This document shows, in pieces, positions 6,156-56,565 of a stretch of 64,000 bases of DNA. Numbering within the stretch: position 1 is the first letter of the stretch; each line of letters opens with the position of its first letter. Made by a program: the position numbers and the translations under genes. Origin of the DNA: Enoplolaimus lenunculus (lineage: Eukaryota); contig JASANG010000621.1 in assembly GCA_030248215.1 (NCBI GenBank), positions 1-64,000 on the forward strand, in the 5' to 3' direction. The notes below the pieces were generated by a model. That model searched no databases, had not been told where the DNA came from, and saw only the letters and a program-made list of their open reading frames with translations.

Positions 6156-6694
6156 TAAGCTACCACTGAGTAAACTGTCATGAAACTTTAATGGCATCGA
6201 TGATTGTCAAATTTAACATTCCTAGGATAATCAGCTCTGAACTGTTCAACAATCCAATGTTCAACACAGATAATTTTTTTTCAAGTTCATAGAACGTAAA
6301 CTACGTTTATATGTCATTTTCATTTATTTAAATTTGTTGTATGTGCGAAAAATATTCTGAAGGTTTTGGTGCTGGAAAAACCACTTTTTATTCGCAGGCA
6401 CATGCTGTAAACCTTGAAGACTACACTTATTCGTAATTTTCATACTCGTGTTTTTATCTTATCATGCATTTAGATACATTAAAAGGCTGGAACGATGCCC
6501 AATATACTTAGTTTGGGGCGTTCTAGTTTTAATATATAGATTTGTTTGTTAAAATTTGTTCCAAAATTATAGCCAGCTATACAAATGAGCTACAAAATAA
6601 AGCGACCGGGCAAAATAATGTGTAAAAAACATCACCCTGTTAAAATACGATACAAAATGCACGAGCAATTTGGTAATATTTTTGATTTTGGCCC

Positions 6695-10578: not shown

Positions 10579-12542
10579 TGTAACACAGCGAACCCAGAAA
10601 TTCAAATCGATCGGCACTCCGGGGAACGACTTCCTAACTAAGTTCGAAGGTTACCAAAGCAAACACAAACGGCTAATTCTCTTACAATAAAAAATGACAC
10701 GGGGCGCCTACTGAATCAAATCAAGTTGATAACCCCACGCCCAAAATAGACTCCGTACACAATATTCAGAAAACTCCGCAGAGCACAAATCGTGCTAACG
10801 CAAAATTCGCTACGTACCACTGACGCCCCAAAATTAAATAAATTTGTAAGATTACGGCACCTTTGCAGGGTAGGCTCATAACAACGCACCAAAAATTATC
10901 CTGTGGCACCCTGATTCCACTTCGATACTAGAAATATTCCGAATTAGCACAAAAATAAACCACTGTTTACCAACAAATTTTCCACTAATTTCCAAAAGAT
11001 ACAATTCACGACGAGAAATTTATGCGAACTAGTGCTCACTCACAGCACCGAACCTGTTAAAACTCTCTAAGTGTCGTTAAAAACAAAATAAGTGATTGAA
11101 TAATTTACGGATTCCTTACGGAAATAACTCGTATGCGCGCGCTCTATTGTATACGCAAGTACAACCGCTAAAATTCTCGAACAGACCTCTTGTCTGACAC
11201 CACAAATTCCCAAAATCTATGCACTTATATTTAACGCAAGTTTCTACAAAACTTCCACTGCACCACGATTTCAGTTAAAATGCTACAACTCTAACTCAAA
11301 AATTATCGCACACAGCGGTTCTTAACTAATCTTAATACTTCCCGTACAAACTAAGTAAACGCCTTTAAGCGCTCAACAAAAATCAAAATCGCGCGTCTCT
11401 ATACGTCGCTAAACAATCGGACAGCATATCACACCCGTACAACTCTGAGCCCCCAAACCCAACCTGTTCTACTCTTATATAGTCGTGAACCGAAAGGTTA
11501 GCTGAATTCTAAGAATCTTATACTACATTTTTAAAATTCCTCCAAATTTCTGAAAAACTAATAAATTTTACTTATCTACAGTTTTTCTTACAAATTTCAA
11601 CTTAAAAATTTTGTTAAAATCTAACAAAAACCTGTTTTGTCTAAAAAATCTAGTTTTTAGATGAAAATTTAAACTTTTAAATCGGTTAAAAAATCTAAAT
11701 TATGTTGTTTTGACCCTAGTAATTTATTTTAAAAACAAAATTGATCTTTCAAATCGCATAAAAAGTAAAAAAATCCACTATTTTGACGAAAATCCGTAAT
11801 TTTCAAAACAAAATTTTAGCTAAAAATTTACAAAAATTTACATAAAAACTAAGTTTTGACCAGAATTTATAAATTTCAAAACAAATTTTATTTTTTAAAT
11901 TAAAATTTTAAAATAACTTCTAATATTTTGTCTTCAAATTAAAATTTGCAATCGTTTTAATTCTAGGAATTAAGCCTACCAAAATTTCCAAAAAGGGGAT
12001 AATTTCAGTACTATTTCACAGATATGGAATTTTCTCTGTTATACTATGCTACAAATTGTATCTCGGAAATAAAACCTTGATTTTAAGGTACAAATTTATT
12101 CCTTTTTATGGTTTCAAACATGATGAACCTGGCCTAAAAATTGCAATTATAGCAAGGACAAAACTCAACTAAAACGACTGCAAACAAAAAACTACAATCT
12201 ATCCGCACCGCATAACTCCTGCGCCTACTGTAAACCTAACCCGTGTATAAAAACTAAAAGCATAAAATCGCGGAGGCAAAAAAATATATATTGCTGGCTG
12301 TATAACCCAACAACAACAACAACAATAAACAACAACAACAACAATAAACAACAACAACAATATTACTACAACAACAACAACAATATTACTACAACAACAA
12401 CAACAATATTACTACATGTATGTATGCACACATACAATTGATACACACTACACAAGCATCACTACAGGGTAATAGGTATAAAAAATTTTAAAATTTCGAA
12501 ACGGGGGTATTCTAAGAATTTCAGCTACCCCCCCACTCTACA
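10579..12542 (-). repeat. 3' LTR (1964 bp)
   Basis: Minus strand reads TGTAGAGTGGGGG...GTGTTACA; 10579-10840 and 11434-11830 align to the other LTR; contains a (CAA)n tract at about 12307-12415. Confidence 0.85.
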
Positions 12543-12560
12543 CTCTCCTCACTTTATTTT
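12543..12560 (-). other. Polypurine tract
   Basis: Minus strand AAAATAAAGTGAGGAGAG directly precedes the TG of the 3' LTR. Confidence 0.8.
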
Positions 12561-14315
12561 GAGCGAGCTCCTGCGAGTTAACTTAAACTACTTCCTAAAA
12601 CAAAAAAAACTACCACAACCCCAAAAATATACTTACCAATCACAGTCGAAGCCTTTGGACCATGATCCGAGGCGCTTCACCAAATATTGGCCTGTCATTC
12701 GATAGCTATCGTCAACCGCTTAACCATTAAAATGTAGAGTTAATCAACTGAACTTCCTAAAATAAGAATTCCTAAAAATACAACAACAATAATATTAAAT
12801 TATAGACAAAATTTAGCTTTGCGTTTAAGAAATTGGTGGCTTCCTTACGGAAAGCAATGTTTCCGAAAAATAACAGAACACTATTTACACACCGAATCCA
12901 AGTATATTTTAACTCACCAGCTGTTCGCTAAAAAATGCCTAAAATACATCGACGATTACACAACATAATATTTAAACTGTACACAAAGAATTAAGTTAGA
13001 TAAGTAAGGAAACACATTGGCTGCCTTACGGCTACAGTAATTTAATTTTCAATAAAGTAGCTAATGACTCAAACTAAATTTTTTTTTTTTTTAGTTTTAA
13101 GTTTCTCTTCCTTTCATTTCTTTTGTTTTGTTTTATTAATTTACAATTGTACATACCCGTATTAAAGCTCACGCTAGGTAAGCCAAACTTACTATGTCTA
13201 TACATTCCAACACTTTTTAAGACTTGTTGGTATAAAAATTACATGATCACCCTGAAATAAAATACAATGTATATGATTAACATTAAAGCGATATATACAG
13301 CATTGGTAATATTTGACAAAATTATGGCTTCCTTGCGGTCATAAATGTTTTTGTAATAACTAAAACATTGCATTTTACATAGCTAATCGACGTGTTATAA
13401 TATGTTCGAAAACAATAACTAAAATACCATCTACAAAAGTACATTAATTACTCTCTGTACATTGAGGCACATGGAGTAAATAATAAGTAAACAAATTGAC
13501 TCCCTTACGGGTTCAAATACCAGATATGAGAAAAGAAAATAAAAAGTATTTTTATTTAGTTTTATTTATTTAATTTTTTTAATCTTACGCCCAAAGATAT
13601 ATATTTTTTTACATATTTTTTTGTTTATTTTTGTTTTGCATATAATTTACAAATATGTACATAGTTGCTTTACACCACGTAATCGAGGATAGATACTTAC
13701 AGTCACTGCAAGTTGATAAGCTTTCTAATTACACTAATCAAAACAATTAATCCAGACACAATAAAAATTCCTCACCATGCTGCCATTGTTCGCCCACATA
13801 TCTTTGCCGGATCACCCATTGACTGTCTCATATAAGCTGCTTTTCCGATGATTGCTAAAACAGGTATTTTAAAATATAAAAACATCTAGTTCATAACATG
13901 AAACATAAGTTAAAGAACGTAGGGCTCCCTTGCGGGCATATGCTACAACTGAACTCACCATTGAAACGAGATAAAAATTTTGCATATCAGTACCAAAATA
14001 GACTCATTGCAGATTTATGCATGAGTGATTAGTAATTGTTCGGTCAACTTAGAAAGCTGTCTGTGCGCACGCCATTGTTTGAAACACTAAAATGGTAGTA
14101 TATGGAAATAGGCAACTCTATGATTTCCTTACATACTCATTAATTGAATTGTATGGCTCCCGTATGGGTAAAACGCCTATAGTATTTAAATGGCTAAGCT
14201 AGTTCAAACATAGGCAAAACCTGTGTTGTTATTTTTTTTATTATAAAACTCAAACTGAAATTATCCTTACAATAACATGGTAACACTGTGATTAGTGACT
14301 AACATTAACGAAGCA

Positions 14316-14903
14316 CTATTCAACATAGCAGTACACAATGTTAAAAACATTCGGTCGCGAAATCAAAGGTGCTCGTGGTATTAGTTTTTTTCTTGAAACA
14401 AGTTTTTTATTACTTAATTCTACCCGCAAACGCATTAGCATATGACCCATTTCATTTCTTCCTGGCCAGCTAGCTGGACATGCGAACTGTGGATCAAATT
14501 TAGTTACTCCAGTTCCCCAAAATGAATCATATTTATTAGTTTCTGCTATAAGGCAAGTTCCTGTATCAACCAATGCATCTCTAAGCGTAGGGTGTTGACA
14601 AAACTTCGCATAAACCGCTTTTTCCATAACACGGAGCTTGTCTTTCTTCCACCCTGCAATCAATCGCCTACCTACAAAAGTTCTTAACATTAATTTTTGT
14701 TCAATGGCCATCAGTCGTTTTGCTTGTTTAGGATCACTAGTCTTTAATATTTCTTTAGCTAACTGCAACCTACCAAGTTCTTTGGCTTTAGTGTATTGGT
14801 AGAAATGCTCCACTGATGCATAACCTTGGCCATCAATTACAATCGGAACTAAATATAAGTTTGAAAACACATGAGATGACCCGATAAACGGAACTATAAT
14901 CAT
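14316..14903 (-). CDS. NADAR/YbiA-family hydrolase (195 aa from first ATG; frame open to 15002)
   Basis: Family motifs FSNLY..PIVIDG..YASVEHFYQ..KA, W....LRVMEKAVYAKFCQHPTLR..L..TG, IAE...D.FWGTG and W.GRN.MG.MLM.LR. Confidence 0.9.
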   Translation of the reverse strand: MIIVPFIGSSHVFSNLYLVPIVIDGQGYASVEHFYQYTKAKELGRLQLAKEILKTSDPKQAKRLMAIEQKLMLRTFVGRRLIAGWKKDKLRVMEKAVYAKFCQHPTLRDALVDTGTCLIAETNKYDSFWGTGVTKFDPQFACPASWPGRNEMGHMLMRLRVELSNKKLVSRKKLIPRAPLISRPNVFNIVYCYVE

Positions 14904-15161
14904 GTTATTTGTGCTTAATCTACGAGGAAAGGTATAAACTAACCTAATGGAATATATTGAGAATATGGCCAACCAGCGTTGATGGTAAATCCGCACAGCC
15001 AAATCCTACCGCAACCTCCAGTGAAATTTATTGCAGTTAATGGAATTAAGCAACAGTTGAGATTAGAGCAGCTGTTGAAATGTCCAGAATATAGGCACGC
15101 GAAGCGTAATTATTATGCGATGACTAATGTTATGTTAGGGATATATAGGCAGTAATATAGT

Positions 15162-18100
15162 TTATCGCGATGCTGGTAATGGATTAGCTAAATTAATCCG
15201 CATATGTATGAACCGTTTTACTGCCGGAGCCATTGGCTCAATCCAGGCGTTCGCTTCGCTACACTCTCTAATAGACTCACGGACCAGAGGCTGATCAAGG
15301 AAGTGCAACGTGTTGCATACAAAGAAATTAGCTTTTCTGGCCCGCGTAATAGTAACGTTCACTCGCCGATACTCAGATAAGAAGCCTAGCGGGTGTGGCT
15401 GACCCGCTGCGTCTAATGATGGGAGTGACCGGACGAGAGAAATGATCATATAATTTCTCTCGTCCCCTTGCCAGACATTAGCACATCCGATTTTTATGTC
15501 TGGATATTCCCTACCTACCATCTGTTTGAGCAGTTCCGTCTGAATTGCATATGCTGCATTGATTCCAATATCCGCCGGTGGCACCCCACCCTGGTGTACC
15601 AGCAGCTCAACCAACTTAGTTACCGCCATCAGTTCATGTCTATTGTACAGACTCACACCATGGTACGCCTGTTGCCCTTCGATATGCCAGATCACAATGG
15701 GTTGCCCAAAGGGGATTTGGCGAACGCTAGGCCAGTCGGTGTGTTGCAACCACTGGTCAGCGGAACAAAGCAAGGGCGTTTCAGTATACACCACGCGATT
15801 TGGCGGTTCCAGTAGTGCTGGCACTGAACGGTAATTTTCACGTAGTTGTATTACTCGGCAGTCAGTACTGTTTTTCGCTAATGTCAACAATAACTCCATC
15901 CCTGATTCTTCCGCGCCGAATTGCCACAAAACCCTGTTGGTGACATATGCCGGTAGCTGGTGCACGTCACCCATCAAGATAACTTGACCGGCCACTGCTA
16001 ACGGTAGAACCACCGACATGCGCGGTAAGTCCACTGAGGCGGCCTCATCGATTGCTATTACGTCGAAAACGCCATGACCGTAATTGGGCTCGTTTTTACA
16101 ATGATGAAATGCGTCTAAATTGTTCACAATGTCCATAATAGCCATATCCATGGTGCACACAATGATTTTATGATATAACAAAGCACCAGATGACTTAAGT
16201 TCCCGCTGCCCGTCTTGTTCGGTGGTGTTAGGATCGCTTCGCGTCGCGCAGTACGGCTGTAACACTGGATCAATGAGATTCATGTCGTAGTTGCGCCGTA
16301 GGTAGCGCACGACGACTCCGGGTGGTATGACCTCGTTGTTACTAAGGGACTGTAAATTTTGAACCAGTTTTAGCGCGAGAATATTTGCAGCAGCGTTGGT
16401 GCTTGTGACACACAAAAAACGCTTCTCTGGATTGCTCCATGACAATGCGGAAAGAATGCGGGCAAGGGTGCTGGTTTTTCCTGTTCCGGGAGGTGCGCGA
16501 CAAAGACTAACTTTTACACCCTGAATCAGTGCGGTAAAAACTTGTGACTGGTTATAATTTAACCAGTGTTGTACATACTCGTCAGTCGTTCTGGTCGTTC
16601 GCCACTGTATGGGTTTCTGATTCAGTTCATTCCTAAGGCCACAAAAAAGCAAACCATACCACGACCTCCAGGCGGCAAAGAAACGTTGTCGAAATTGTAT
16701 ACGGCGGCTGTTCGCCAGGACTTGAGCATCAGCGGTCGGTTCGACAGACGCTGATGACGTGGATGATTGCTCCGAAGTGTCAGGCATTTCAATATCCCCT
16801 TCCGGTTGCTGCGGTAAACTCGGAAGCTGTGGCTGCTCGATCACACAGTTTAATAGTGAAATTAAATATTCCAGTGCAGGACCCATCATTGGAACCAATT
16901 GAACGTCTCGTAAGTTTCGAAGGTTGGGACCATCATAGAATATGTTTCGCGTTCCTTTGTTCAGTTTGATGACGACCATGGTGTGATTGATGTTAATAGG
17001 CTGTGAACCGACTACTGCGACGACTATCTTGACTTTCCAGTCCGATTGTACTAAATTAGCCAGGCGCGTGAGTCGAAGGTTGCGAAATTCGTTGGTGTCC
17101 ACTGTAACCGTCAAGAACATGGAATCGGGTGGCGATTTCTCAAACTCGTATAAATCGGAGCTTCCGCTATTCGCAATGGTTTCGAAATCACTAGCTACAG
17201 TTGGTGATACCGTAGTCACCGTCGCCTTTGGAGGGTCGTCTTCCTCGTACTGAACCTGGCCTAATAATTCTGCAAGTACGCGGTGAGGCAAATTGTTAAA
17301 GGTTACAGGTCGAGTCGGGTCAAGGATTGCCAGGATATCGTTCTTATTAGGTGTACTAGGCAGAGGCTCTGGTGCATCTGCCGCCACCAGCCGGTGATAA
17401 ACCGGGCGTTCGACCAATGTCTGAGCTGGTGCTATGGCGAACTGATACCAGATTTCAAAGTATGGTGATAGGTGCGGTATAGTTATCTTGGTTGGTTTCA
17501 AACAACGATTCACAGTTGCAGGGTCTTTTCGCTCGTTCGGTACGCCAAGAGCAGATTGTGGAACCAGCGACAGGTGCCCAGCCTGCTGTTCTGCACTCGA
17601 TTTACGAATCAGCGCTTGCAAGGCCTCATCAATTTTCTCATCGAGATATAAGTCGCGGAAATCCCATTGGATTATCGTCGTGAACGGGGCAAATTTGTTT
17701 ACTCGGCGACGTGATTGATACTGAACCCACATTTGTAGCTCGTAGTAGTGTAACCCAAGCCGACCCTCACCGGAAATGGTCACGTGAAATGTGGGTGATT
17801 GGTTACGTGCACGGGGCATTACGGGACTAAATACAACGCCGTCCGGAACGATACAGTTTGGGGTACGTGGTATAAACAGTTGAAAGGGCTGCCGATCCGT
17901 AGTGGTAGCGTCGAATAAAAGAGTGGATACCTGGTCAAAGTCCGACAGTCCTTGGATGACTGGCAATGCTGGAGCTTCAGGCGCCCAAGGTGCGCCGAGA
18001 TGAAAACTGGCCTGTCCATTGTCTGCTCCAACACATTCAATCAACACCTGAGCACCATACATCGAGTTTTTAAGCTCAGTGATGCTGCCGATCCTGCGTC

Positions 18101-18542
18101 TTTCAATCCACTTCTGGTGTTCAACCAATGCTACCCCCACCGGACTAAATCGAAATTTCTGCACTTCAATGCTGACCATATGAAACGGAGTCCACAAATG
18201 ACTGGGGCCAAATATAACCGTTCGGCATACAGGACATAAAGTCATTGGACTCTGGGGCAAATTCTTAGGCCAAGCTACGTACTGGAGCTGCTCTGCTAAT
18301 CGCTCCCAAAGCGCATGATCTAGTGGACTGGAATCGTCTGTTAAACCCAATTCGCATAGAGCTGGGCGCAGAGCATCAATAGGTAAATAGGCCGAAAGAC
18401 AGTTCAGTGCTGCGGATTGGCTGTAGGGGTGAAGCGTCTCGCGAATTAAAGATGTAGCAACGAGATTGGACAAAGCCGGAGGAATGCCAAGTCGAGCACT
18501 AAACTCCACGACGGGGTTAGGGCTACCAGCAGCAGAATTCAT
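15162..18542 (-). CDS. Upf1-like superfamily 1B helicase (1126 aa, intronless)
   Basis: Walker A APPGTGKT, Ia TSTNAAANIL, Walker B IDEAA, III GDVHQLP, LRENYRS, YNRHE, V WQGDERNYMIISLVRS, VI RRVNVTITRAR. Confidence 0.92.
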   Translation of the reverse strand: MNSAAGSPNPVVEFSARLGIPPALSNLVATSLIRETLHPYSQSAALNCLSAYLPIDALRPALCELGLTDDSSPLDHALWERLAEQLQYVAWPKNLPQSPMTLCPVCRTVIFGPSHLWTPFHMVSIEVQKFRFSPVGVALVEHQKWIERRRIGSITELKNSMYGAQVLIECVGADNGQASFHLGAPWAPEAPALPVIQGLSDFDQVSTLLFDATTTDRQPFQLFIPRTPNCIVPDGVVFSPVMPRARNQSPTFHVTISGEGRLGLHYYELQMWVQYQSRRRVNKFAPFTTIIQWDFRDLYLDEKIDEALQALIRKSSAEQQAGHLSLVPQSALGVPNERKDPATVNRCLKPTKITIPHLSPYFEIWYQFAIAPAQTLVERPVYHRLVAADAPEPLPSTPNKNDILAILDPTRPVTFNNLPHRVLAELLGQVQYEEDDPPKATVTTVSPTVASDFETIANSGSSDLYEFEKSPPDSMFLTVTVDTNEFRNLRLTRLANLVQSDWKVKIVVAVVGSQPININHTMVVIKLNKGTRNIFYDGPNLRNLRDVQLVPMMGPALEYLISLLNCVIEQPQLPSLPQQPEGDIEMPDTSEQSSTSSASVEPTADAQVLANSRRIQFRQRFFAAWRSWYGLLFCGLRNELNQKPIQWRTTRTTDEYVQHWLNYNQSQVFTALIQGVKVSLCRAPPGTGKTSTLARILSALSWSNPEKRFLCVTSTNAAANILALKLVQNLQSLSNNEVIPPGVVVRYLRRNYDMNLIDPVLQPYCATRSDPNTTEQDGQRELKSSGALLYHKIIVCTMDMAIMDIVNNLDAFHHCKNEPNYGHGVFDVIAIDEAASVDLPRMSVVLPLAVAGQVILMGDVHQLPAYVTNRVLWQFGAEESGMELLLTLAKNSTDCRVIQLRENYRSVPALLEPPNRVVYTETPLLCSADQWLQHTDWPSVRQIPFGQPIVIWHIEGQQAYHGVSLYNRHELMAVTKLVELLVHQGGVPPADIGINAAYAIQTELLKQMVGREYPDIKIGCANVWQGDERNYMIISLVRSLPSLDAAGQPHPLGFLSEYRRVNVTITRARKANFFVCNTLHFLDQPLVRESIRECSEANAWIEPMAPAVKRFIHMRINLANPLPASR

Positions 18543-18940
18543 AATTAAAGAGCGTTGATAATTACGGCGCCTTTACAGGCAAAATGTCGCTGCTAAACTC
18601 GTAATGTTACTGTTGTTGATATATGATGACTATGGGTCCCTTACGGGTAAAACATTGCTGCAGCCAGCAGTACATAACTTTGACAGTTGAAGGTCGATGA
18701 TAATAAAACGTAACAACTATGGATCCCTTACGGGTACACAGCGCTGCCACAAGCAACCATATTAATAGCAGTTGAATGCTGATATTATTGCTACTACTTT
18801 TAATACGTAATAATAATAATAATAATGTAATTTGACAGTTACGGGTCCCTTACGGGTTATAACTACTTTGTTTATTTCAAACGACACGACATCGTGCGTA
18901 GTCCCGATCGCCAATGACATTAATGCTATGGAAATTGTGA

Positions 18941-21900
18941 TTACAACGGAAAATGGCTAGAGCCACGAGCGCGTAAATTATACCGATGCATTGCCCGAGG
19001 TACGGGCGCAGTGGTTTCCTGGTGCTCCTGTTCCCTTGCATCAATGTCACTAGATGCCGTTTCCATAGCAGAGTCGTTACCGTTTGATACATACTGCAAT
19101 TCATGATTGCTGGATAAACCGGGATTTTTATCTACTTCTAATCCGTTCTCAATATCTACGTCCATATTTGCCTTCGTACTGCAGGTACCGGTTTCATCTT
19201 GACGTAATTCAGGTACATAAGGACCATAAAAAGGTTTAATGCGTTCTACATGCACCCTTTTATGTTGCTCCTTAGGGTTAGTTATGGATTGCAAAACAAC
19301 ATCAGGAAATACTAACTCTATGATTTCATAAAGACCGTGCCATTCTTGTCCTAATTTCTTAGTTTTTCCTTTCTTTTGAAAAGGCACGTGCAATAGGACC
19401 TTTTGTCCCTCAAAGAAATGCGGTTCCGCGGCACGACGATCATGATAAAATTTCATGTGATCTTGGGCTGACTGTATGTTTTGCTTAGCCAACGCCCATG
19501 CTGCTTTAAGGGTAAGTTGCAAATCCCTAAAGCAATCTTCTTCATCTAAGTAATTGACGTTACTAATTGGCAATGCTACATCAATTGGCAGCCGTGGTTG
19601 TCTCCCATAAACTAATTCAAAGGGGCTAAGCCGTGTAGATTCGTTAACACTTACTCTATAAGCAAAACAAGCAAACGGAACGAACTCATCCCAAGTGCGT
19701 TGAGCACTGTCTATGTATTGAGAGACCATGTTCATTAAGGTACGATTTATTCGTTCCACCACCCCATTGGTTTGGGGTCGATAGGGTGTTGTAAAAACTT
19801 TTCGGGTTCCTGTAATTTTACAAATTTGGTCAACTAATTCGCTTCGAAAATTAGGTGCATTGTCACTAATTAATTCACATGGGGCTGAATGGCGACAAAC
19901 TACCTCAGTCATAAACAATTTTGCAATAGTAGTGGCTTTTTGATCAGGAGTGCAAATGGCCTCGGGATATTTTGTAAAACGATCAATAAAAATTACCACG
20001 TATTTGTTCCCATTATAGGTTTGGGGTAATGGGCCAAGAACATCCACATGATATGAAAAATTGGGCTGCGTAGTAGGAATTGGATTCAATGGTGCCTTAG
20101 GCCTGGCCGGTCCAGTTTTACGCTTACTGCACTCGATGCAAGCCTTGCACCAATTTACTACGTCACGGTACATCCCATCCCAAAAATACTTGGGTAATAA
20201 CTTTTGATATGTCTTGGCAACACCAAGGTGTTGTCCACCAACAACATCATCATGATGTGCTGATAGTAATTCTTCACGCATAGAGAAAGGAACAACTAAT
20301 TGTTCCCAGAGTACACCGGGTCGATATTTGGGTATAGGATAATGATGGTACAAAACTCCATTTTTTACTACATAACGTGGCTGGATTAATGCAAAGTGCG
20401 AAGCCAGCTTTGCATCATCCGGGTTTTTACCAAATTCAATATATTCCTTTAAAGCCTTAATCTCTGGGTCCTGCTCTTGTTTTTCCGCAAACGGAATAGT
20501 TGATGGTAGGTCCTGCTTGTTGGAAGTTTCACTTAAGGCAACTGCGTATGCAAACTTAATATCTTCCTCATCAGAACCTTCTTCTAATTTAGAAATTTCA
20601 GTACGAGAAAGGGCATCAACATGCGACATATTTTTACCCGCTCGGTGTTCAACATTAAAATCGTATTCACTTAAAGCAAGTGCCCAACGCTGTAATCTTC
20701 CCGATGCATTCTTATTAGTTAATAACCATCGAAGGGCTGAGTGATCAGTTATTATAGTCACATGCTGTCCGTATATATAATTACGAAAATACTTCATAAA
20801 ATAAACAACAGCTAATGCTTCCAATTCAGTAGTGGTGTAATTCCGTTCAGCTTTTTGAAGCAAACGACTACCATAAGCAATAGGATGGGCTCTGCCCTCG
20901 TTATCTTTTTGAGATAACACAGCTCCAATTGCCTTACCGCTAGCATCTGTTTCCAAAATGTATGGCTTGCTGGGATCGGCTATTTGCAAAATTGGAGGAG
21001 ACATAAGTTTAGATTTTAATAATTGAAATGCTTTTTCAGCCTCTGAATTCCATTTAAAAGGTTTCAAGGTGCTAGTAAGTTGACTAAGTGGCTTAGCAAT
21101 TGCTGCGAAGTCTTTTATAAAACGACGGTAATAACTGCAAAACCCCAAGAAACCTCGCACACCAGTAATATCATTCGGTATAGGGTAATGTTCAACTGCT
21201 TCAATCTTTTTCGGATCTGGCTTCAAGCCTTCAGCAGAAATAATATGACCTAAATATGGAACTTCTTTTCTTAAAAAGTTACATTTAGCTGGTTTAACTT
21301 TAAGACCGACATCCCTTAATCGTTCAAATACAAGACGCAAGCGTCTAATGTGCTCGTCAAAAGTTTCAGAAAACACGCATATATCGTCTATATAGATAAG
21401 GCAGACACGCTCAACTAATCCACGAAGGGTGGCCTCCAGTGTACGTTGAAAAGTAGCAGGAGCGTTGCATAAACCAAAAGGCATTTTAGTAAATTGATAC
21501 AAACCAGCTGGGGTAATAAAAGCAGTTTTCTCAATTGAATCAGAAGCCATAGGGACTTGCCAATATCCTGATATTAAATCCATAACACTAAAATACTTTG
21601 CTTTCCCTATACACTCCAGTAAATCATTAATATTCGGAAGTGGAAAACAATCCTTCTTAGTCACGGCATTTAATTTTCGGTAATCAATACAAATGCGCAA
21701 AGACTTGCCGTCTTTCTTTTTAAGTACAACCATTGGACTAGCCCAGGGGCTTGTTGAGGGCTCAATGATTCCGTAACGTAGCATGTTGCCTAACTCTGTA
21801 TCCACCTTATCCTTAGATTGAAAAGGCACCCGATAAGGTCTCTGCTTAATAGGCACTGCATCCCCAGTGTCAATTGAATGTTCAACTACTGATATAGTTC

Positions 21901-24900
21901 CACAATCGTAATCATGCTTTGCGAAAACATCGTTAAATTCCAAAAATAATTCAATCAACTTTGACTTTTCGATTCCCGAAATTTCAGACTCCTCTAATTT
22001 TAGATCAGCTATCAAATCAAAATGTGGTTGACAACTAACAGATTGTAAGTTCAATACAGTAGGTAAAACACAAGTATCTAAGGGTTCTATTCGACCAACA
22101 GTCATGCCCTTATACAGCCGAACGGGACAATTCGACATATTAAGTAATCGCAAAGGAATAACTAAGTTATCCGCATCACTTAATATTAATTCAACTGTGT
22201 TTAAACCGTATAACTGAATAAGCTTATAATTTGGTTCAAAATACACATCACCCTCATGTCCAAACCCTTTTACTTCGCAGGGTATAAGCACCTCTGATCT
22301 TGAAGGAATAAGTGTAGTATCTGGCAAGAGTACATTTTGGCTTGACCGATATCCCATCTTTAACTGCATTTTTCCAAGCTTAACAATGCCTGTTGCGTAA
22401 TCTAGACTTATAGTGCCAAATTGTCGTAGTAAATCAACCCCTAGTATTGCTGGGTGGGCGCATTCATCTGATACATACACATGAAAAGGTAGGGATTTGG
22501 AACCTATTTCAATTTGTACTTTAATAGCACCTTTCAGGGGTAATGCATGACCAGTAACTCCAACAGCGGTGGTGGCGGGTACTGGAACCAGACTAGTTTC
22601 GGGTTTATTCAATTTTCGAAAAGTTTCTGATGACATAACAGTAATATTACTTCCAGTATCGATAACTGCTCGTACAGGTATATCATTCATGTAAATTTCA
22701 ATGTCCGAAAGAGAGGGTCCTAAAGTCAAAACAGTCTCCGCTACGGTATGACTCGGAGAAAGGCTGGTTGAAAACTGTAATGCACGTTTCCGTTTGCTAC
22801 ATAAAAATTTTGATGGTCCAATAACAGTTGAATGTATAGGCAATTCCAACGTTTCAGTTTCAGGGGAAGTACATATTACTTCCACAGGGGTTGACCTTTC
22901 TTGTCCATAAGATTTACAACAGCAACGCAAACACTTAAACCATTTGCCATACCAGGCGTATATAACACATATACCCACTACCAACATGACCAACCCGACA
23001 GCTATATAACTTAATAAATCGCTATAGGGTAAATTGAAATCAGCACTAGGTGTAAAAGACAAAAGCTCCCTTTTTAATCGGGTACGAGTCAAATTAGACT
23101 GATACTCTACGTTTTCTAAGCTTCCCCACACTGGCGGTGGCACTACGTCTTGATGTAGAGTGAAATTGTATTGAACATCAGGTGAAATTTCAAAGTTAAG
23201 AGCGGGTCTAGAGGTCGACATAAGCACGCGGTCTCCAACAATCAGCATACTAAAATTTTCAAAAGGCATAAACATAACCCCGCGCTCCGGTACACGCATA
23301 GTCTCAATTACAGATGAGGAGACCAATTTTTTAGTCCTTGTGAGCTTGACAGTTGGTTCCGAAGTACGCAAAAGTAATCCAACCCGAGTGGTTTCAATAT
23401 GGGTGCCTGCAAACATTTGTTTAACTTCCATTGCACATGTATTATTATGCACTACGGCTTGGCGCATTCCTCTAAAACAGCTGTCCGCTTCGCTAGTTGG
23501 CAAAGCTTCCATCCCACAGTACCATAAACCAATACGCTTGTCACAAGCTTCGGACTTTACTTCGTGATAATACCCCTTACTAAACATACGAGCATAAGTT
23601 ACAAACTTAGGCAAAGCTAATCGGGCAATTATTTGTTTTGAAGGAATGTTAAAACCGACGTTTATAACCTTCATAAGCGGCAACACGTTCTTAATTCGTA
23701 TTAGGGGGATTTCCAAAATTATTCCAAATTTTGTTTCTCGAATATCTAGTAGCACGGGATAAACCTTAACAAAGTGGTAGAATAATCCGGGATCATGTAT
23801 GTATACTGAATTTCGCAATGTTGGCTCCTGTTTAACAAGCTTTTTAATTTGAGACGCAGACAGAATTGCGACAGATAAGCGACCGCTATCACTAGCAAGG
23901 ACTAATGCATCCACTACTTTACGTACTCCATTTATAAACTGATTTGATTGAGAAATAAAATGCGAAATCGTTACCGATTCTGTTAAACTGCAGGTCATTG
24001 TAATTCGGGTTTGTTCTACATATTTCTGTATCTCATGGGTTATTGCGAAAACTCGCTGTTGGTTAATATTCAGTTTATGAATTGCCTCCGAATTTTCAGT
24101 GATTTCGTCATTCAAAAGTCGAACACTTTTCTGGAGGGCCAAAATTTTTGGTTCCAAATGTGACAACTTAATACTATTGGCAATTCCAAGTCCGGTGCCC
24201 ATGATCGAAGTCAAACCAGTCAAAAGCAGGGGGACAAAGCGGCGATTACGACCCGAAGTAACAAAACTACAAGTGAATGGCTTTTTCTCACACATGTCTC
24301 TCATTAGCTCTTCATAAAATGCAGAGTCGATGGTATCCTCATAGTTATTAGCCAAATCCGAAAGTGCCTGTTTCTTAATCATGCTAAATAAACGCTGTTG
24401 ACCAGTGCAATTACAAAAAGTAGGTGTACCACCTTGAAAAACAAGAGGAGAGCATGGCTTAATTCGGTCTTGTCCAGCATGCACAACTACAGGCAGGTAA
24501 ATGGATTCACTTGCGGTTAACACTAGACCCTCAGGTATAAGCCCAACCCCAACAGAAGGAAAAATTTTTGGTTGTAATTGATGTAATGTTTGCGTTAAAC
24601 TAGAATCAACACGACCCGTTAAACTAAATATGAGTGCAATCACACAACAAAGTAAAATATTCCATGGCTTAAGTGGAGGAACTTTGCACCTACTTGATCG
24701 TCTAGGACAGTTACTTCGAACCGGTGGTTTATCTGTAACAGCTTCATTCAAATTTAAAGAAGCAGGTTCAGTTTGGGTAAATTTAGCAACATGATGTGTA
24801 GCCTGGATGGCTCCGACAAAATTGGGAAACGATTTTTCCACTAGGAGGGCATTTTGACTACGCAAAGTAGCAAGCTCTTTCTTAAGACGATCAATTTCTT

Positions 24901-26104
24901 GCTTAGAATCGCATCCAGAATTAACAGCTTTTGCATCATTAGATACTAGAGTAGTAGCTACAACGGCTTTGTTAGGCGGGACTGGTGATAAAGTTGGTAA
25001 ATTTGGGATATTAGGCCGCGCAGGGCGGTTAAAGTTCGATGCCGGAAAATTTGGCCGATAAGTCGACCGTCCAAAATTATTTTGAGTTTGGAGTCTGTTA
25101 TTCCGAGGAAAATTTCCGTTACGTAACAAACAGGCCATTGCTAAATGTCCAACTTTCCCACAATTATAACACTTCGGACCGCGAGGGGAAAAATTTTGAG
25201 CCAAATCGGGACGTGGATTTTGAAAGTTTCGATTTGGTGGGCCCCTATTTGGTGGACCTCGGTATCCGTTAGAAGGTTGGGGTCTGTTCCGTGGCTCAGG
25301 ATGCCTAAAGGTGTTTCTGCGCATGTTCTGTATAAGCTGCTTTTGATTATTTGCCAGCAGCTGGACTCCCCGAGCGAGCGTATGCAAAGTCTGCTTTGGA
25401 GCAGGCACGGACATGTTCAAAGGATCAACGCCTGTCGGTTTTCCACAGAGTAAAGACTGCATATCTAGGCGCTGAGCTAAGTCCTCCGCTTCCTTAAGCG
25501 TTTTTGGCATATCCCGAAAAACTTCTAGCTTAGCTTCAGTTGGAAGTAAACCGCCGAAAAATCTATGTATAACTCTACGGTCAAACGCGGCGTTGTCCAA
25601 ATTAGGATAAACACTTTTACAAGCATTCTTAATACCCTTTAAATAAGCTGCAACACTTTCACCAGGCAGCTGATGTCGCTGCTCAAGCGCTGCTTCATGG
25701 TACATAGTCCACTCAGTGGTTGTCAATTGGGCCTCTAAAGCCGGTACTAAATCAGTAAAACGGCGCTTAGATTGTTCAGGTACTCGCTCATATGCATCCT
25801 TAGCACGATCTTTTAAATAGGCAGGCAACACCTTAAGTTTCATATCATCATCAATTAAACGGGCATTACAATAAGTATTAAAAGTATCAATCCAACTTTT
25901 AAAATCAGACCCGGTTAAATCTCCCCGAAAAAATGTAATTGATAAATCAGGTTCAGTACCCAATCTTACACGTTGGGATATTAAATCAAAATCGTCACTT
26001 AATCCTCTTAAGCCATCATCTACACGATTAGCAAGATCTTTCACAACAGCATCTAGCTGAGCTATGTTCCTAGTTATATTTTCCATGTTTGGGTTTTGTA
26101 ACAC
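18941..26104 (-). CDS. Gag-Env-Pol polyprotein (capsid, CCHC knuckle, class I fusion glycoprotein, protease, RT, RNase H, integrase)
   Basis: In order: CYNCGKVGHLAMAC; hydrophobic WNILLCCVIALIFSL; RNRR/FVPLLLTGL; TM YIAVGLVMLVVGICVIYAW; VIDTGS; YIDD; ETDASG; HHCC zinc motif and DDE core (DVLGPL, ISDNAP, GVVER). No stop or frameshift. First ATG is at 26086 and the frame is open further upstream. Confidence 0.95.
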   Translation of the reverse strand: MLQNPNMENITRNIAQLDAVVKDLANRVDDGLRGLSDDFDLISQRVRLGTEPDLSITFFRGDLTGSDFKSWIDTFNTYCNARLIDDDMKLKVLPAYLKDRAKDAYERVPEQSKRRFTDLVPALEAQLTTTEWTMYHEAALEQRHQLPGESVAAYLKGIKNACKSVYPNLDNAAFDRRVIHRFFGGLLPTEAKLEVFRDMPKTLKEAEDLAQRLDMQSLLCGKPTGVDPLNMSVPAPKQTLHTLARGVQLLANNQKQLIQNMRRNTFRHPEPRNRPQPSNGYRGPPNRGPPNRNFQNPRPDLAQNFSPRGPKCYNCGKVGHLAMACLLRNGNFPRNNRLQTQNNFGRSTYRPNFPASNFNRPARPNIPNLPTLSPVPPNKAVVATTLVSNDAKAVNSGCDSKQEIDRLKKELATLRSQNALLVEKSFPNFVGAIQATHHVAKFTQTEPASLNLNEAVTDKPPVRSNCPRRSSRCKVPPLKPWNILLCCVIALIFSLTGRVDSSLTQTLHQLQPKIFPSVGVGLIPEGLVLTASESIYLPVVVHAGQDRIKPCSPLVFQGGTPTFCNCTGQQRLFSMIKKQALSDLANNYEDTIDSAFYEELMRDMCEKKPFTCSFVTSGRNRRFVPLLLTGLTSIMGTGLGIANSIKLSHLEPKILALQKSVRLLNDEITENSEAIHKLNINQQRVFAITHEIQKYVEQTRITMTCSLTESVTISHFISQSNQFINGVRKVVDALVLASDSGRLSVAILSASQIKKLVKQEPTLRNSVYIHDPGLFYHFVKVYPVLLDIRETKFGIILEIPLIRIKNVLPLMKVINVGFNIPSKQIIARLALPKFVTYARMFSKGYYHEVKSEACDKRIGLWYCGMEALPTSEADSCFRGMRQAVVHNNTCAMEVKQMFAGTHIETTRVGLLLRTSEPTVKLTRTKKLVSSSVIETMRVPERGVMFMPFENFSMLIVGDRVLMSTSRPALNFEISPDVQYNFTLHQDVVPPPVWGSLENVEYQSNLTRTRLKRELLSFTPSADFNLPYSDLLSYIAVGLVMLVVGICVIYAWYGKWFKCLRCCCKSYGQERSTPVEVICTSPETETLELPIHSTVIGPSKFLCSKRKRALQFSTSLSPSHTVAETVLTLGPSLSDIEIYMNDIPVRAVIDTGSNITVMSSETFRKLNKPETSLVPVPATTAVGVTGHALPLKGAIKVQIEIGSKSLPFHVYVSDECAHPAILGVDLLRQFGTISLDYATGIVKLGKMQLKMGYRSSQNVLLPDTTLIPSRSEVLIPCEVKGFGHEGDVYFEPNYKLIQLYGLNTVELILSDADNLVIPLRLLNMSNCPVRLYKGMTVGRIEPLDTCVLPTVLNLQSVSCQPHFDLIADLKLEESEISGIEKSKLIELFLEFNDVFAKHDYDCGTISVVEHSIDTGDAVPIKQRPYRVPFQSKDKVDTELGNMLRYGIIEPSTSPWASPMVVLKKKDGKSLRICIDYRKLNAVTKKDCFPLPNINDLLECIGKAKYFSVMDLISGYWQVPMASDSIEKTAFITPAGLYQFTKMPFGLCNAPATFQRTLEATLRGLVERVCLIYIDDICVFSETFDEHIRRLRLVFERLRDVGLKVKPAKCNFLRKEVPYLGHIISAEGLKPDPKKIEAVEHYPIPNDITGVRGFLGFCSYYRRFIKDFAAIAKPLSQLTSTLKPFKWNSEAEKAFQLLKSKLMSPPILQIADPSKPYILETDASGKAIGAVLSQKDNEGRAHPIAYGSRLLQKAERNYTTTELEALAVVYFMKYFRNYIYGQHVTIITDHSALRWLLTNKNASGRLQRWALALSEYDFNVEHRAGKNMSHVDALSRTEISKLEEGSDEEDIKFAYAVALSETSNKQDLPSTIPFAEKQEQDPEIKALKEYIEFGKNPDDAKLASHFALIQPRYVVKNGVLYHHYPIPKYRPGVLWEQLVVPFSMREELLSAHHDDVVGGQHLGVAKTYQKLLPKYFWDGMYRDVVNWCKACIECSKRKTGPARPKAPLNPIPTTQPNFSYHVDVLGPLPQTYNGNKYVVIFIDRFTKYPEAICTPDQKATTIAKLFMTEVVCRHSAPCELISDNAPNFRSELVDQICKITGTRKVFTTPYRPQTNGVVERINRTLMNMVSQYIDSAQRTWDEFVPFACFAYRVSVNESTRLSPFELVYGRQPRLPIDVALPISNVNYLDEEDCFRDLQLTLKAAWALAKQNIQSAQDHMKFYHDRRAAEPHFFEGQKVLLHVPFQKKGKTKKLGQEWHGLYEIIELVFPDVVLQSITNPKEQHKRVHVERIKPFYGPYVPELRQDETGTCSTKANMDVDIENGLEVDKNPGLSSNHELQYVSNGNDSAMETASSDIDAREQEHQETTAPVPRAMHRYNLRARGSSHFPL

Positions 26105-26296
26105 AAGGTGGGAGTTACTATCGAGGGGTTCAGAAAATTCAGAATCGTCGTCGCTGGATTCTAAGACACCAGTACTGCGTAATTTGTATCGAGCCGTTAT
26201 TTTTACAAAACAAACTGAACGTTCTTTAAAAGGGTAAAGGTTAGCACTCGGACAAAATTTTCGACCAAAGCTCGTTTACCGGTTAAGAAAACTGGT

Positions 26297-26314
26297 ATCT
26301 CGGTGGGACCTCCA
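26297..26314 (-). other. Primer binding site, tRNA-Gln
   Basis: TGGAGGTCCCACCGAGAT lies 2 nt from the 5' LTR end and is complementary to the metazoan tRNA-Gln 3' end (ATCTCGGTGGGACCT-CCA). Confidence 0.88.
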
Positions 26315-26316
26315 AA

Positions 26317-28323
26317 TGTAACACAGCGAACCCAGAAATTCAAATCGATCGGCACTCTGGGGAACGACTTCCTAACTAAGTTCGACGGTTACCAAAGCAA
26401 ACACAAACGGCTAATTCTCTTACAATAAAAATGACACGGTACGCCTACTGAATCAAATCAAGTTGATCTTCCCAAGCCCAAAATTGACTCCGTACACAAT
26501 TCAGAAAACTCCGTATAGCACAGATCGTGCTGACTCAAAATCCACTACGTACTACTGACGCCCCAAAATAAAATAAGAAATGCAAAATTATGGTCCCTTT
26601 ACAGGTGCAATTCCAAATAAATTGCTAAATAATGACTTCTCGGAAATAGTATAGTTCTACTCCAAACACAACGACTCCCCTTAAGTAATCAAGTCAGCCT
26701 AATATCAGAATTTTAGGCCAGGAAATTAAAAAAGAATCAAATAGTTCAACACCACCAATATACACTTCTCGATAATTACCAGTTTCAACTTAGGGTCCAA
26801 AAATATGCGAAGTACTCTTTGCACGAAAAAAATCAAAATTGCGTAACTCTTGCAAAAAAATAAATCAAGTAATTTAATAACTACGGCTTCCTTACGGAGC
26901 AAAGTCGTAGCTGCGCGCAGTTTGCTATAAATCACCAAGGAAGTACCTAAATTTGCTACAATTGTCCCACCAGCAATTTTTTTCAACAAAATTTAACTTA
27001 AGTAGGCAGAAAATTTCTCGCCTACTACGGGCTCCCAAATACTCAAAATATCCTCTACGCGTACTATTCACCAAGTATCCCACGACACAACTTAACGCGC
27101 AACCGTAAATTTTATATAAACACAGGCACCCTAAGTTCAAAACAATTCGCATAAATCGCCGGTACTAATTCTCCGATAAGAAATTGGGCAGCGGTTCGCT
27201 CCCGTACAACTCTGAGCCCCCGAACCCAACCTGTTCTGCGCTTATATATTCGTAAACCGAAAGGTTAATTGAGTTCTAGGAATTTTATGATAAAATTTTA
27301 AATTCTTTCAAAAATGTTGAAAAACCACTAAATTTAACTTAAAAAAGATTTTCTTAAAATTTTCTAACTCAAAATTTTGTTAAAATCGAACAAAAAGCTG
27401 TTTTGTCTTAAAAATTCAGTTTTTAGAAGAAAATTTAAACTTTTAAAATAGCTCAAAAATCTAAAGTATGTTGTTTTGACAGAAGTAATTTATTTTAAAA
27501 ACAAATTTGATCATTCAAATCGCATAAAAAGTTGAAAAAAGTACTATTTTGACGAAAATCCGTAATTTTCAAAACAAAATTTTAGTTAAAAATTTTAAAG
27601 AGTTCTTAGAATCCTAATGTTGTGGCTTCGAATGGTTGTTTCAAGGTTCCTACAATTCTCAGAACTGTCATTCTTTAACTTCTTAAAAAGGGGCTACTCG
27701 ACCACCATTCTGGACTTAGATTACAATTTTATACTACAAAATATTAAATAACATGTCCTAGACTTCTCGCAGTAGTGCATATCCATCAGGAAGCTGATAT
27801 TGATATCCGACTATAGACTAAGCCTGATTTACCCAATACCCCGCTTATTTTTACGCAACTACCACATAATCCGACAAATTCAATTTCTCACATATGTGAG
27901 CATTCATACAATTCGATATTCTACATGAAAGCTAAAGTAATGAGCAATAATTACACTACTTGCCTACACAACACTGCACTTGCAAGTGTTCCAAAGTGCA
28001 CTGGAATAAATATACACACAAACAGATGTATGAACAATTGTTTAAGTCCTTTCAGTAGGTCCAATAGCAATATAACAGCACAAATCTTCCCAATAGCACC
28101 AACCTCAACTGTACACAATAATTAAAACACACGCACATATACAAATGTATAATACATGAACACACTAATTGTATATGTATACACAATATGTATACACATA
28201 TATATTGCACCATACACATCAATAAAATGGGATAAACTTAAAAAATTTCCTCCGACGTTACAAAAAGGGGGTTTTAAAGTCACACCAGGGTATCCTAAAA
28301 ATTCTAAAATCCCCCACGCTACA
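26317..28323 (-). repeat. 5' LTR (2007 bp)
   Basis: Minus strand reads TGTAGCGTGGGGG...GTGTTACA; abuts the PBS; aligns in blocks to 10579-12542. Confidence 0.85.
27200..27250 (-). promoter_or_regulatory. Putative LTR core promoter (TATA box and initiator region)
   Basis: TATATAAG at 27241-27248, mirrored at 11474-11481, followed ~30 nt downstream by GCTCAGAGTTGTACGGG conserved in both LTRs. Confidence 0.6.
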
Positions 28324-29485: not shown

Positions 29486-32400
29486 ATGCGTAGATCTATT
29501 CTCACAATTCTTCATTTGGTGATGTTGATAGCAGAAACATTAAGCCATGCCGGTCATCATAAACGCCAACAAAAACTGCTCATTGTTTCGTTCGATGGTT
29601 TCAGATGGAATTTGATTGAGGTACTGTTTTAATTGTTTGTAGCTTGCTGTAATCAGCACTTGTTAAATAAATTGCATGAAATTTTGCATACAAAAGTAAG
29701 CGGTCTTCTTGCTTGTTGGTTGTTGGTGTTGGTACTATACGGTCTGCACGACCCCTGTTTGAAGTTTTGCCAAAGTTAATGACCACGCCGGGAATCGAAC
29801 CTCGGCCCTCTTGCGCTCGAGCCAAGCATGCTACCACTACACCACGCAGTCGTTGCAACAACTTCTTATACCGGTATATGTGCACAGGCATGGCAACTTG
29901 TGCTTTACATACACTTACGTGCACATATACCGACATCCCTCTTTTTTACAGGCGGTCGTCTCGGACCGTGAATACAACTACCCGAATCCATGGGCTTGCT
30001 GTTTGCAGTGCCCATCTCGGTGGGACCTCCATGTTGGTACTATACGGTCTGCACGACCCCTGTTTGAAGTTTTGCCAAAGTTAATGACCACGCCGGGAAT
30101 CGAACCTCGGCCCTCTTGCGCTCGAGCCAAGCATGCTACCACTACACCACGCAGTCGTTGCAACAACTTCTTATACCGGTATATGTGCACAGGCATGGCA
30201 ACATTTGCTTTACATACACTTATGTGCACATATACGGACAGTTGGCACCGTTGCTTGCCGTTAGGTATCTATTTTTACGAATACAAATATTGTTTGCAGA
30301 AACTTCCACGTGTCAACAATTTTACGAGATTTGCTCAACATGGAGGCATGATTGCACCAAACGGTATTAAAAATGTGTTCGTAACCAAAACGTTCCCTAG
30401 TCATTACACAATTGCAACTGGTCTGTACGAAGAATCATCTGGAATTGTGGCAAACAGTTTTTGGGACCCAGACTACCGCAAGGTTGTTCATTTACAAAAG
30501 AATTCAGATCAAAATTTAACGCATCTGTTTCTTGGTGAGCCCATTTGGGTGACTTATATTCGTCAAAAGCATCGTCCTTTCGGAGTTGGATGTTATATGT
30601 GGGTCGGGTGCTCGTTTTGGATTAAGGGTAAGTTAGACGTGTTACTCTTATTAGTATCGGTTTTCGATTTTTGTTGTGATGCTATCCACTATGCTTGCTT
30701 GTACTTTGCTACGCCTAGGATTTGTTAATTGGAGTTTTCTGCGGACTAGGGTTCTTTCTTACCACGCTTCTTTAGGAAGCCAAATGGCCGCTCCGCAGTG
30801 CTTAAGCGTAATTGAATTGTTAAGTAAGGACTCAATTTCGCCTAAGCGTAAAGAACGCAATTCTACTAAAGTCCGGGAGATAAAGACGACTCTGCAAACG
30901 CAACAAGGCCTGCGGAGTGAGAGTTAAGAATTAGGAAAATGAGAGCGAAATAGGAGCCCGGACGATCCAGAAAAAGGGAAAGCTAAGGGAGGGTGATTTA
31001 AAAAATAAAAAGTAAAAACCCTGAATTTCAAGGTAAGATGCCACATGTAATTAGCATTTTAACCGTCTAGCTCTAAATTACCAAATGTTAGCAGGATTTT
31101 AAGAGCGATTACAGAGCAAATAATTGTTCAAGCAGGCGGAATCTAACTGCCGTGTTTCTCTGTCTGAAATAAAGCTAATATATAGGTAAAACGATCATTT
31201 GGTTGGTTAATGCGTAAACAAAACATGAGTTTTCTTTTCGTTTAAACTATACACCCAATTGAGGTTTAGCTTTAAAATGTTGGCTGTTGGGCGTATGAAA
31301 TTGGTTTGGCGCTGCTCGAGATATGTTTTATGGTTAAATCATTTTTTATGTCTGTCCATCGTTTTTCTATTTTTAAGGAATTCATCTTAAATTAAGTCCT
31401 CCATACAGCACTATGGTTCCGTGGCATCAAAGGGTTGACACTGTAATTAACTGGTACAACCACAACGGTATTGATCTCGGTTTATTGTATTTTAATGAGC
31501 CTGACAGCACTGAACACGAATATGGGCCAAACTCGCCTGAGGTGACACGCAAAATGATGGAAATTAACAATTATGTTGGGTATTTGTTAGATCAGGTACA
31601 ATTTAGAGCAGTTATAGTAACAGTAATGATTTTGAAATATGGCCATACAAATATTCTATGATTACAGCCGAGCGTATCTTCTGGTTGAGCGAAGCGTTTT
31701 ATGTTTTGTCGTCGTTGGACGAAAGGCGGATGACCGCCCGACGACAATCTCAGCAACAACTGAGCGGATTTTGAGAAACTTTTTGTTTGAAAGCTTATTA
31801 TCCTGCAGTGATTATCTCGCATTGGGGTTTGAAAATTTTAAGCCGTTCATTAGCTACAGGGTAGTATGCATAATTGGTTAAGCCTGAATTTGGAGTTTTT
31901 ACAGTATTTCACTAATTATTAGGGTTAGAAGCAATCTAATTTGACAGTACTTATATACTTATTACTTTGTGTGGTTAATTTTATTGTTTTCAGTTGGAGT
32001 TCTTTGATTTGGATATCAATATTATCATAATGGCAGATCACGGGTTCACAACTATTGCTGGTGTGACAGACATAACAATTGATCCGCGTCTATTTAGCAC
32101 GACTGTAGAGAAGGATGACTTTTGGCATGTAGAGCCGTTGCCAGGTATCTTAGAGTTACTGCTTGAGCTTATCTAGAAGATGAGTGAAACCAAGAGTGGA
32201 TGATGCCCACCACCTTGCAGAAGAGTGTGCAACTGCTTGGGCTGTGCATGGTATTAAATGTACCAGCACGCGTTGCATTTTTGTTCGACCGCCCTCAATC
32301 GGGAGGGGGGGTTAAGCAAGAGATTAACAATAAAGTATGCTTCAGTACACCTCCCCCCTCATTTAAGGGGGGGGTCAACTATGTTGTTTAATCACACTTG

Positions 32401-56135: not shown

Positions 56136-56565
<430 letters not shown>

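Follow-up and report, generated by a model that had tools for sequence, protein, structure and literature searches.

Fourteen copies of a predicted GYAA hairpin module in the non-coding RNA of a 17.7-kb Ty3/gypsy-type element from Enoplolaimus lenunculus

A repeated RNA module in the non-coding parts of the element

The long terminal repeat (LTR) element described here, of the Ty3/gypsy (Metaviridae) type, lies on the minus strand of a 64,000-nt stretch of Enoplolaimus lenunculus DNA (assembly GCA_030248215.1, contig JASANG010000621.1, positions 1 to 64,000; hereafter the window), and its non-coding parts carry 14 copies of an 18-nt motif that is predicted to fold into a short hairpin (Table 1). 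On the element's sense strand the motif consists of N-C-Y, the loop G-Y-A-A, R-G-N, a junction of three bases (often A-N-C) and a C-R-U-A-R tail that is degraded in three copies of the 3' untranslated region (UTR). A selected RNA structure is supported, because the copies are strand-biased, are absent from coding DNA, show compensatory stem changes and are retained in two divergent LTRs. We treat the 14 sites as one predicted RNA module and give an even chance to the reading that a single protein, most plausibly one that the element itself encodes, uses them as repeated landing sites by which the long unspliced RNA is marked. Literature searches aimed at repeated GNRA hairpins in LTR elements listed no report of them, and the motif is apparently undescribed so far.

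A sequence-only reading had placed 14 such sites in the element, two in each LTR, four in the spacer between pol and the helicase open reading frame (ORF) and six in the 3' UTR. This distribution holds, and every site lies on the minus (element-sense) strand, at the expected position or 1 nt from it. Of the listed cores, the one at 13331, given as CCC/GGG, is in fact ACC-GCAA-GGA, with two base pairs and an A.A mismatch. The loop, said to remain GYAA throughout, does so in 13 of the 14 copies, none being GAAA or GNGA, and in predicted structure these 13 are GNRA-tetraloop hairpins; the variant at 14159 has the loop AUAC, which is not GNRA.

Pairing in the stem and identity in the loop and tail

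The compensatory nature of the stem changes, claimed from the first, is borne out by several counts. Watson-Crick pairs account for 41 of the 42 core pairs, with seven double changes, a score that none of 500 shuffles equalled, and a permutation of core pairing gives P=3e-5 for 12 copies (the two 3' LTR copies dropped). When sites were picked without the 5' arm, 27 of 30 pairs were found (P=2e-4), and 21 of 24 for the eight such sites left after removal of the 3' LTR (P=0.0019). The outer pair is C-G in nine copies, U-A in three and G-C in one, the middle pair is C-G in all 14, and the inner pair is C-G in 11 and U-A in three. Beyond pairing, base identity is held in the loop, the middle pair and the tail, as expected of a recognition site, and a CC:GG doublet is kept in every stem, even where the register shifts. 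The hairpin is predicted to be more stable as sense RNA than as antisense or DNA in 14/14 copies, and in a 154-nt context the core reaches a predicted P>=0.5 in 11 of them. Fourteen occurrences of a marginal 3-bp hairpin in which loop, middle pair and tail are fixed have the look of a multivalent recognition site.

An outer stem had been described as well, and of this claim a statistical trend stands. Tails pair with their own upstream partners better than with swapped ones (P=0.0016), and an upstream TAYG precedes seven of the ten copies with a CRTA tail, against a background of 0.23 (P=0.002); the Y-R pair in these seven is C-G three times, U-A three times, U-G once and never C.A, a split that alone is not significant. 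The stem is less fixed than had been claimed: linker and register vary over 0-25 nt, 48% of cells pair in a fixed register, RNAalifold predicts the 3-bp core alone with no consensus outer helix, and local folding puts the tail in a nearby outer stem with P>0.5 in two of 14 copies (18731 and 13933). The outer stem is best seen as a conserved tail that would be able to pair upstream.

Enrichment, strand bias and conservation

The strict 3-bp hairpin pattern occurs 12 times in sense and never in antisense in the 6,530 nt of non-coding element (shuffles: mean 0.03, maximum 2), on neither strand of the 11,215 nt of coding sequence, and once in sense and never in antisense in the 46,255 nt of flank. 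A pattern of loop, 3' arm and tail only has ten matches in the whole window, every one of them sense and non-coding. The covariance model proposed as a check separates the 14 copies from which it was built, which score 24.8-32.9 bits by construction, from all else in the window (<=11.8 bits). In leave-one-out matrix scoring 13 copies reach 11-25, the row at 14165 being out of register in that test, and the best unrelated site in the window reaches 12.4. Rfam covariance models gave no match to any copy at E<=5.

The restriction to one strand and the joint changes of the two arms indicate that the motif acts as RNA rather than as double-stranded DNA. We hold it distinctly unlikely that the copies are double-stranded DNA sites bound by a transcription or chromatin factor, whether as a palindrome NCC-n4-GGN or as an 11-bp direct repeat CCRTAR-n5-CCRTAR. 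In favour of such sites, core and tail agree in 57 of 84 letters when offset by 11 nt, and clustering in LTR and UTRs is known from gypsy insulators. Against them, no covariation links the two repeat units (P=0.30), the 14 copies share one strand, joint changes of the arms are not something that a dimeric DNA binder would require, and U3, where enhancers would be expected, contains no copy.

Scarcely credible is the explanation, raised with the original reading, that the GTAAG cores merely act as splice donors, or as U1-binding sites. GT stands at the start of the loop in ten copies, eight of which read GTAAG, but four of the 14 lack GT, the donor consensus is matched at 4-6 of nine positions, whereas two other sites reach 8/9, the GT lies inside a hairpin loop, and six copies are located past the last ORF.

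Both LTRs keep both motif copies in place within a block that is 52% identical, and in the 640 columns of this block no 18-mer is better conserved than the copy at 26895/11119 (16/18); the second LTR copy shows a GUAA <-> GCAA swap between the LTRs. The flanks of different copies score at background, except in the LTR pairs and downstream of 13029/12848, and as the flanks are unrelated the copies are not recent segmental duplicates. We hold it highly improbable that the copies are neutral relics of an internally spread short repeat whose 11-nt unit would yield the motif automatically. The sole prokaryotic motif match (L037), in an unrelated bacterial minisatellite whose unit is 11 nt long, does reproduce core and tail, but random decay would break pairs that are intact here, the motif is the conservation peak of the divergent LTR block, and the surrounding sequences differ. 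Internal repeat spread may explain the origin of the motif, not its maintenance.

A candidate protein-binding tag

In the mechanism that we propose, the module (a 3-bp stem containing CC:GG, a GYAA loop, a 3-nt junction and the C-R-U-A-R tail) would form its hairpin in RNA, the tail would often pair back upstream to leave a variable internal loop, and several low-affinity sites would together give avidity. The identity of the partner is the weakest step. Gag could use the sites to select the genome into particles, or the Upf1-like helicase of ORF2 could load on 3' UTRs, including the ~7.5 kb that would follow the stop codon in a gag-pol message, and shield the RNA from decay. Our confidence is divided about evenly between these two, and a host export factor takes a smaller part of it. 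In support, the element encodes a zinc knuckle and, as read from its sequence, an apparently intact superfamily 1 (SF1) helicase. The inferred leader holds two motif copies.

Several observations weigh against a protein-binding tag. First, the covariation is among paralogues inside one element and amounts to about five independent changes, a limit that arises because no relative with the motif was obtained. Second, in the 154-nt context the core falls below P=0.5 in three of 14 copies, and local folds are no stabler than shuffles (z -1.4 to +0.7). Third, the loop of one copy is not GNRA, an additional site has no stem, and copies are missing behind the ORF2 stop and from U3. Fourth, retroviruses normally keep their packaging signals within the leader. 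Finally, a reverse transcriptase (RT) search of metagenome contigs returned 26 loci at 30-50% identity, in none of which the motif model found a match (best E 0.69); these loci are mostly short, end in or near pol and are too distant to count against conservation of the motif.

By anatomy, the motif may work like dispersed packaging signals or like a retroviral stability element. Packaging-signal-mediated assembly of single-stranded RNA viruses relies on dispersed stem-loops, many of them short and degenerate, that share a loop motif along the genomic RNA, and the element likewise has multiple degenerate stem-loops with a common loop. Unlike these signals, its copies avoid coding sequence, bear a conserved 3' tail and reside in an LTR retroelement, where capsid binding is hypothetical. 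Rous sarcoma virus has an unspliced RNA with a 7-kb 3' UTR and, behind a stop codon, a stability element (RSE) that acts through PTBP1 binding sites to shield the RNA from UPF1 (PMC4764554; PMC5580461). The present element fits this layout in part, its first copies lying 85 and 148 nt past the pol and ORF3 stops, and differs in its repeated GNRA hairpin, its leader copies, its own Upf1-like helicase and the lack of a copy past the ORF2 stop.

The main rival, which we judge unlikely, is protein-free self-docking, in which the GYAA loop of one copy would insert into the CC:GG stem of another and compact or dimerise the RNA; the identity of loop and stem fits such a contact as well as protein binding. 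It is favoured by the shared GYAA loop of 13 copies, the absence of GAAA and GNGA loops and the doublet in 14/14 stems; a GYGA/CU:AG variant, in which loop and receptor would have changed together, does not occur among the 14 copies. Typical tetraloop receptors sit inside longer helices, but here the doublet is part of a 3-bp stem and directly closes the loop, and self-docking leaves the conserved tail unexplained. Loop class and doublet match the preference stated in PMC7913685, in which CC:GG favours GYAA with a Kd of ~0.8-4 uM, but this preference is only 3-4-fold, the known receptors described there lie in separate longer helices, and docking within the element is hypothetical.

Another fold could serve the expression of downstream ORFs, through internal initiation or through a barrier that halts 5'-3' decay and so leaves subgenomic RNAs, and this we consider quite unlikely. 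Four copies fill the 400-nt spacer, the last ending 20 nt ahead of the ORF2 ATG, no strong splice acceptor precedes ORF2, an AATAAA stands 23 nt ahead of the first spacer copy, and in a post hoc count six of the 14 copies have a complement of the loop within 20 nt downstream (1.3 expected). However, no copy is found ahead of ORF3 or near the gag ATG (516 nt away), six copies lie beyond the last ORF, and a 4-nt loop on a 3-bp stem is hardly able to form a pseudoknot, the downstream complement often suiting the tail.

A more far-reaching proposal, which remains doubtful, is that the GYAA/CC:GG module forms a self-recognition code, read by the element's Upf1-like helicase or through self-docking, that exempts the genome from nonsense-mediated decay and folds the 16-kb RNA for packaging in oversized envelope-bearing retroelements. 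If true, such a code would give the captured helicase ORF a defined RNA target. The motif bears on the role of captured Upf1-like helicases, and on the means by which an unspliced RNA whose 3' UTR runs to many kilobases is selected, protected and exported in very large LTR elements that carry extra ORFs. An 18-nt sequence present 14 times with a clear pairing rule also offers a direct experimental handle for probing, reporter mutation and use as bait.

Searches for the motif and for relatives

Viral contigs searched with the RT and the helicase contained no relative, and the tandem-motif pattern matched no viral stretch. The single-motif pattern matched ten viral loci, one of them a lone match and nine a single homologous site antisense to an ORF resembling an RNA-dependent RNA polymerase (RdRp), which we regard as coincidence. 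In these nine RNA-phage-like contigs (L027, L029-L036) the L-R-x-P-Y-G-K codons of the RdRp spell the motif antisense, with the outer stem in several; by its motifs the ORF is presumably of leviviral type. Hammerhead ribozymes (no CUGANGA/GAAA), the Helitron 3' end (no CTRR), BTE and s2m elements were considered as identities of the motif and dropped on inspection.

Contigs from three DNA runs (two samples, one study) span 13700-19400, with pieces ~90% identical over part of the spacer. Among the 40 of 351 contig differences listed, none falls in a core and one in a junction (18723, AUC -> ACC), a sample uninformative on core conservation. Among the public sequencing runs listed, no RNA run contains the element.

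Anatomy and coding content of the element

The order of protease, RT, RNase H and integrase, the TG...CA LTRs, the primer-binding site and the polypurine tract place the element in Ty3/gypsy (Table 1). The primer-binding site is one that we take to be tRNA-Gln-like. All three ORFs are open, and the gag-env-pro-pol frame comprises 2,444 codons. The closest pol relatives, named or unnamed, reach <=48% identity, and among them are several gag-env-pol proteins that have a class III fusion domain. One pol relative (P0069; 4,038 aa, 48% identity, gag-env-pol order) has a PHAX RNA-binding domain behind the integrase, a further captured RNA-handling module in the group. The host is inferred to be an animal. 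Within 10579-28323, TTTCAG occurs three times in the sense and 13 times in the antisense orientation of the element, a skew that suggests avoidance of splice acceptors.

The closest solved relative of the ORF2 helicase is UPF1 (E 2.7e-19). Relatives were searched for with the N-terminal part of ORF2 (~650 aa) and none was found; a single-sequence fold prediction gave it a predicted local distance difference test (pLDDT) score of 34, and a CxxC...H...H motif can be recognised in it by eye. Among the papers listed in a literature search for LTR retrotransposons that combine a helicase and NADAR, none deals with such an element by its title.

Table 1. Copies of the motif and other features of the element (positions in the window; motif sequences given as sense RNA)
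Feature	Position	Strand	Details
Copy, 5' LTR	26881..26898	-	UCC-GUAA-GGA-AGC-CGUAG
Copy, 5' LTR	26588..26605	-	CCU-GUAA-AGG-GAC-CAUAA
Copy, pol-helicase spacer	18839..18856	-	CCC-GUAA-GGG-ACC-CGUAA; 85 nt past pol stop
Copy, spacer	18717..18734	-	CCC-GUAA-GGG-AUC-CAUAG
Copy, spacer	18630..18647	-	CCC-GUAA-GGG-ACC-CAUAG
Copy, spacer	18562..18579	-	CCU-GUAA-AGG-CGC-CGUAA; ends 20 nt ahead of ORF2 ATG
Variant copy, 3' UTR	14151..14168	-	CCC-AUAC-GGG-AGC-CAUAC; non-GNRA loop
Degenerate 15th site, outside the 14	14118..14135	-	loop and tail, without stem
Copy, 3' UTR	13919..13936	-	CCC-GCAA-GGG-AGC-CCUAC
Copy, 3' UTR	13494..13511	-	CCC-GUAA-GGG-AGU-CAAUU
Copy, 3' UTR	13322..13339	-	ACC-GCAA-GGA-AGC-CAUAA; 2-bp stem
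Copy, 3' UTR	13015..13032	-	GCC-GUAA-GGC-AGC-CAAUG; other fold predicted in context
Copy, 3' UTR	12834..12851	-	UCC-GUAA-GGA-AGC-CACCA
Copy, 3' LTR	11105..11122	-	UCC-GUAA-GGA-AUC-CGUAA; counterpart of 26881-26898
Copy, 3' LTR	10852..10869	-	CCU-GCAA-AGG-UGC-CGUAA; counterpart of 26588-26605
Whole LTR element, Ty3/gypsy (Metaviridae-type)	10579..28323	-	17.7 kb; TG...CA termini, without target-site duplication
5' LTR	26317..28323	-	~2.0 kb; TATA-like TATATAAG common to 3' LTR
Primer-binding site	26297..26314	-	18 nt, begins TGG
gag-env-pro-pol, one ORF	18941..26086	-	zinc knuckle, F-type-like env segment, protease, RT, RNase H, integrase
ORF2	15162..18542	-	~650-aa N-terminal part and Upf1-like SF1 helicase core (AAA_11/AAA_12)
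ORF3	14316..14903	-	NADAR-domain protein
Polypurine tract	12543..12560	-
3' LTR	10579..12542	-	~1.96 kb

An env-like segment of ~600 aa (22901-24730, minus strand) lies in frame between gag and protease. It has a signal-like hydrophobic stretch, a basic RNRR cleavage-like site and a transmembrane segment at residue 1084, and its single-sequence fold prediction has a pLDDT of 33. Compared by language-model features it resembles Fusion_gly (paramyxovirus-type F; 0.94, 207/256 features), a recognition under the tool's threshold. The segment gave no Monjiviricetes_fusion/gB match, whereas the pol relatives P0075 and P0129 each have one, and it showed no similarity to the env of these two. As a lead from sequence features, the env may be F-type (class I) rather than of the herpes simplex virus (HSV)/gB type (class III).

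Sacco et al. are said to have described, in 2022, an extra Upf1-like helicase ORF in nematode endogenous retroviruses (NERVs). Like the GAG-ENV-POL errantiviruses, which include the NERVs, the element has env between gag and pol and a Ty3/gypsy pol (PMC13524379). In the passages on such elements in that source, which report them in Nematoda, Bryozoa and Platyhelminthes with only HSV/gB-type ENV, no RNA motif is mentioned; the present element differs from those described there in its F-type-looking env and its added NADAR ORF (PMC13524379). Extra ORFs and F-type env are known from LTR elements of rotifers (PMC5408684).

The two LTRs align well over only two blocks (84% over 423 nt and 90% over 292 nt), and identity by block ranges over 50-97%, the 640-column block with the motifs being at 52%. 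Near-identical LTRs and a target-site duplication, the signs of a simple recent insertion, were not found. The strongly divergent LTRs probably derive from two subfamilies that recombination, or else the assembly, has joined. From the TATA-like TATATAAG, a transcription start may be inferred near 27215. Positions 27270-27640 and the matching part of the 3' LTR U3 contain A/T runs with a period of ~10 bp (autocorrelation 0.20 and 0.17 at lag 10, negative at lags 15 and 25), reminiscent of the periodic An/Tn clusters (PATCs) of nematodes.

Other features of the window

A very long C-rich/poly-C run at ~56130-56650 is possibly a sequencing or assembly artefact. The region 6545-9400 is a minisatellite array of 19-20-nt units with higher-order repeats of ~670 nt, and an inverted patch lies upstream at ~2060-2260. 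Two tRNA-Ser(CGA)-like sequences (29780-29851 and 30085-30156, minus strand), 305 nt apart, overlap in antisense an open frame that matches phosphodiesterase (Phosphodiest).

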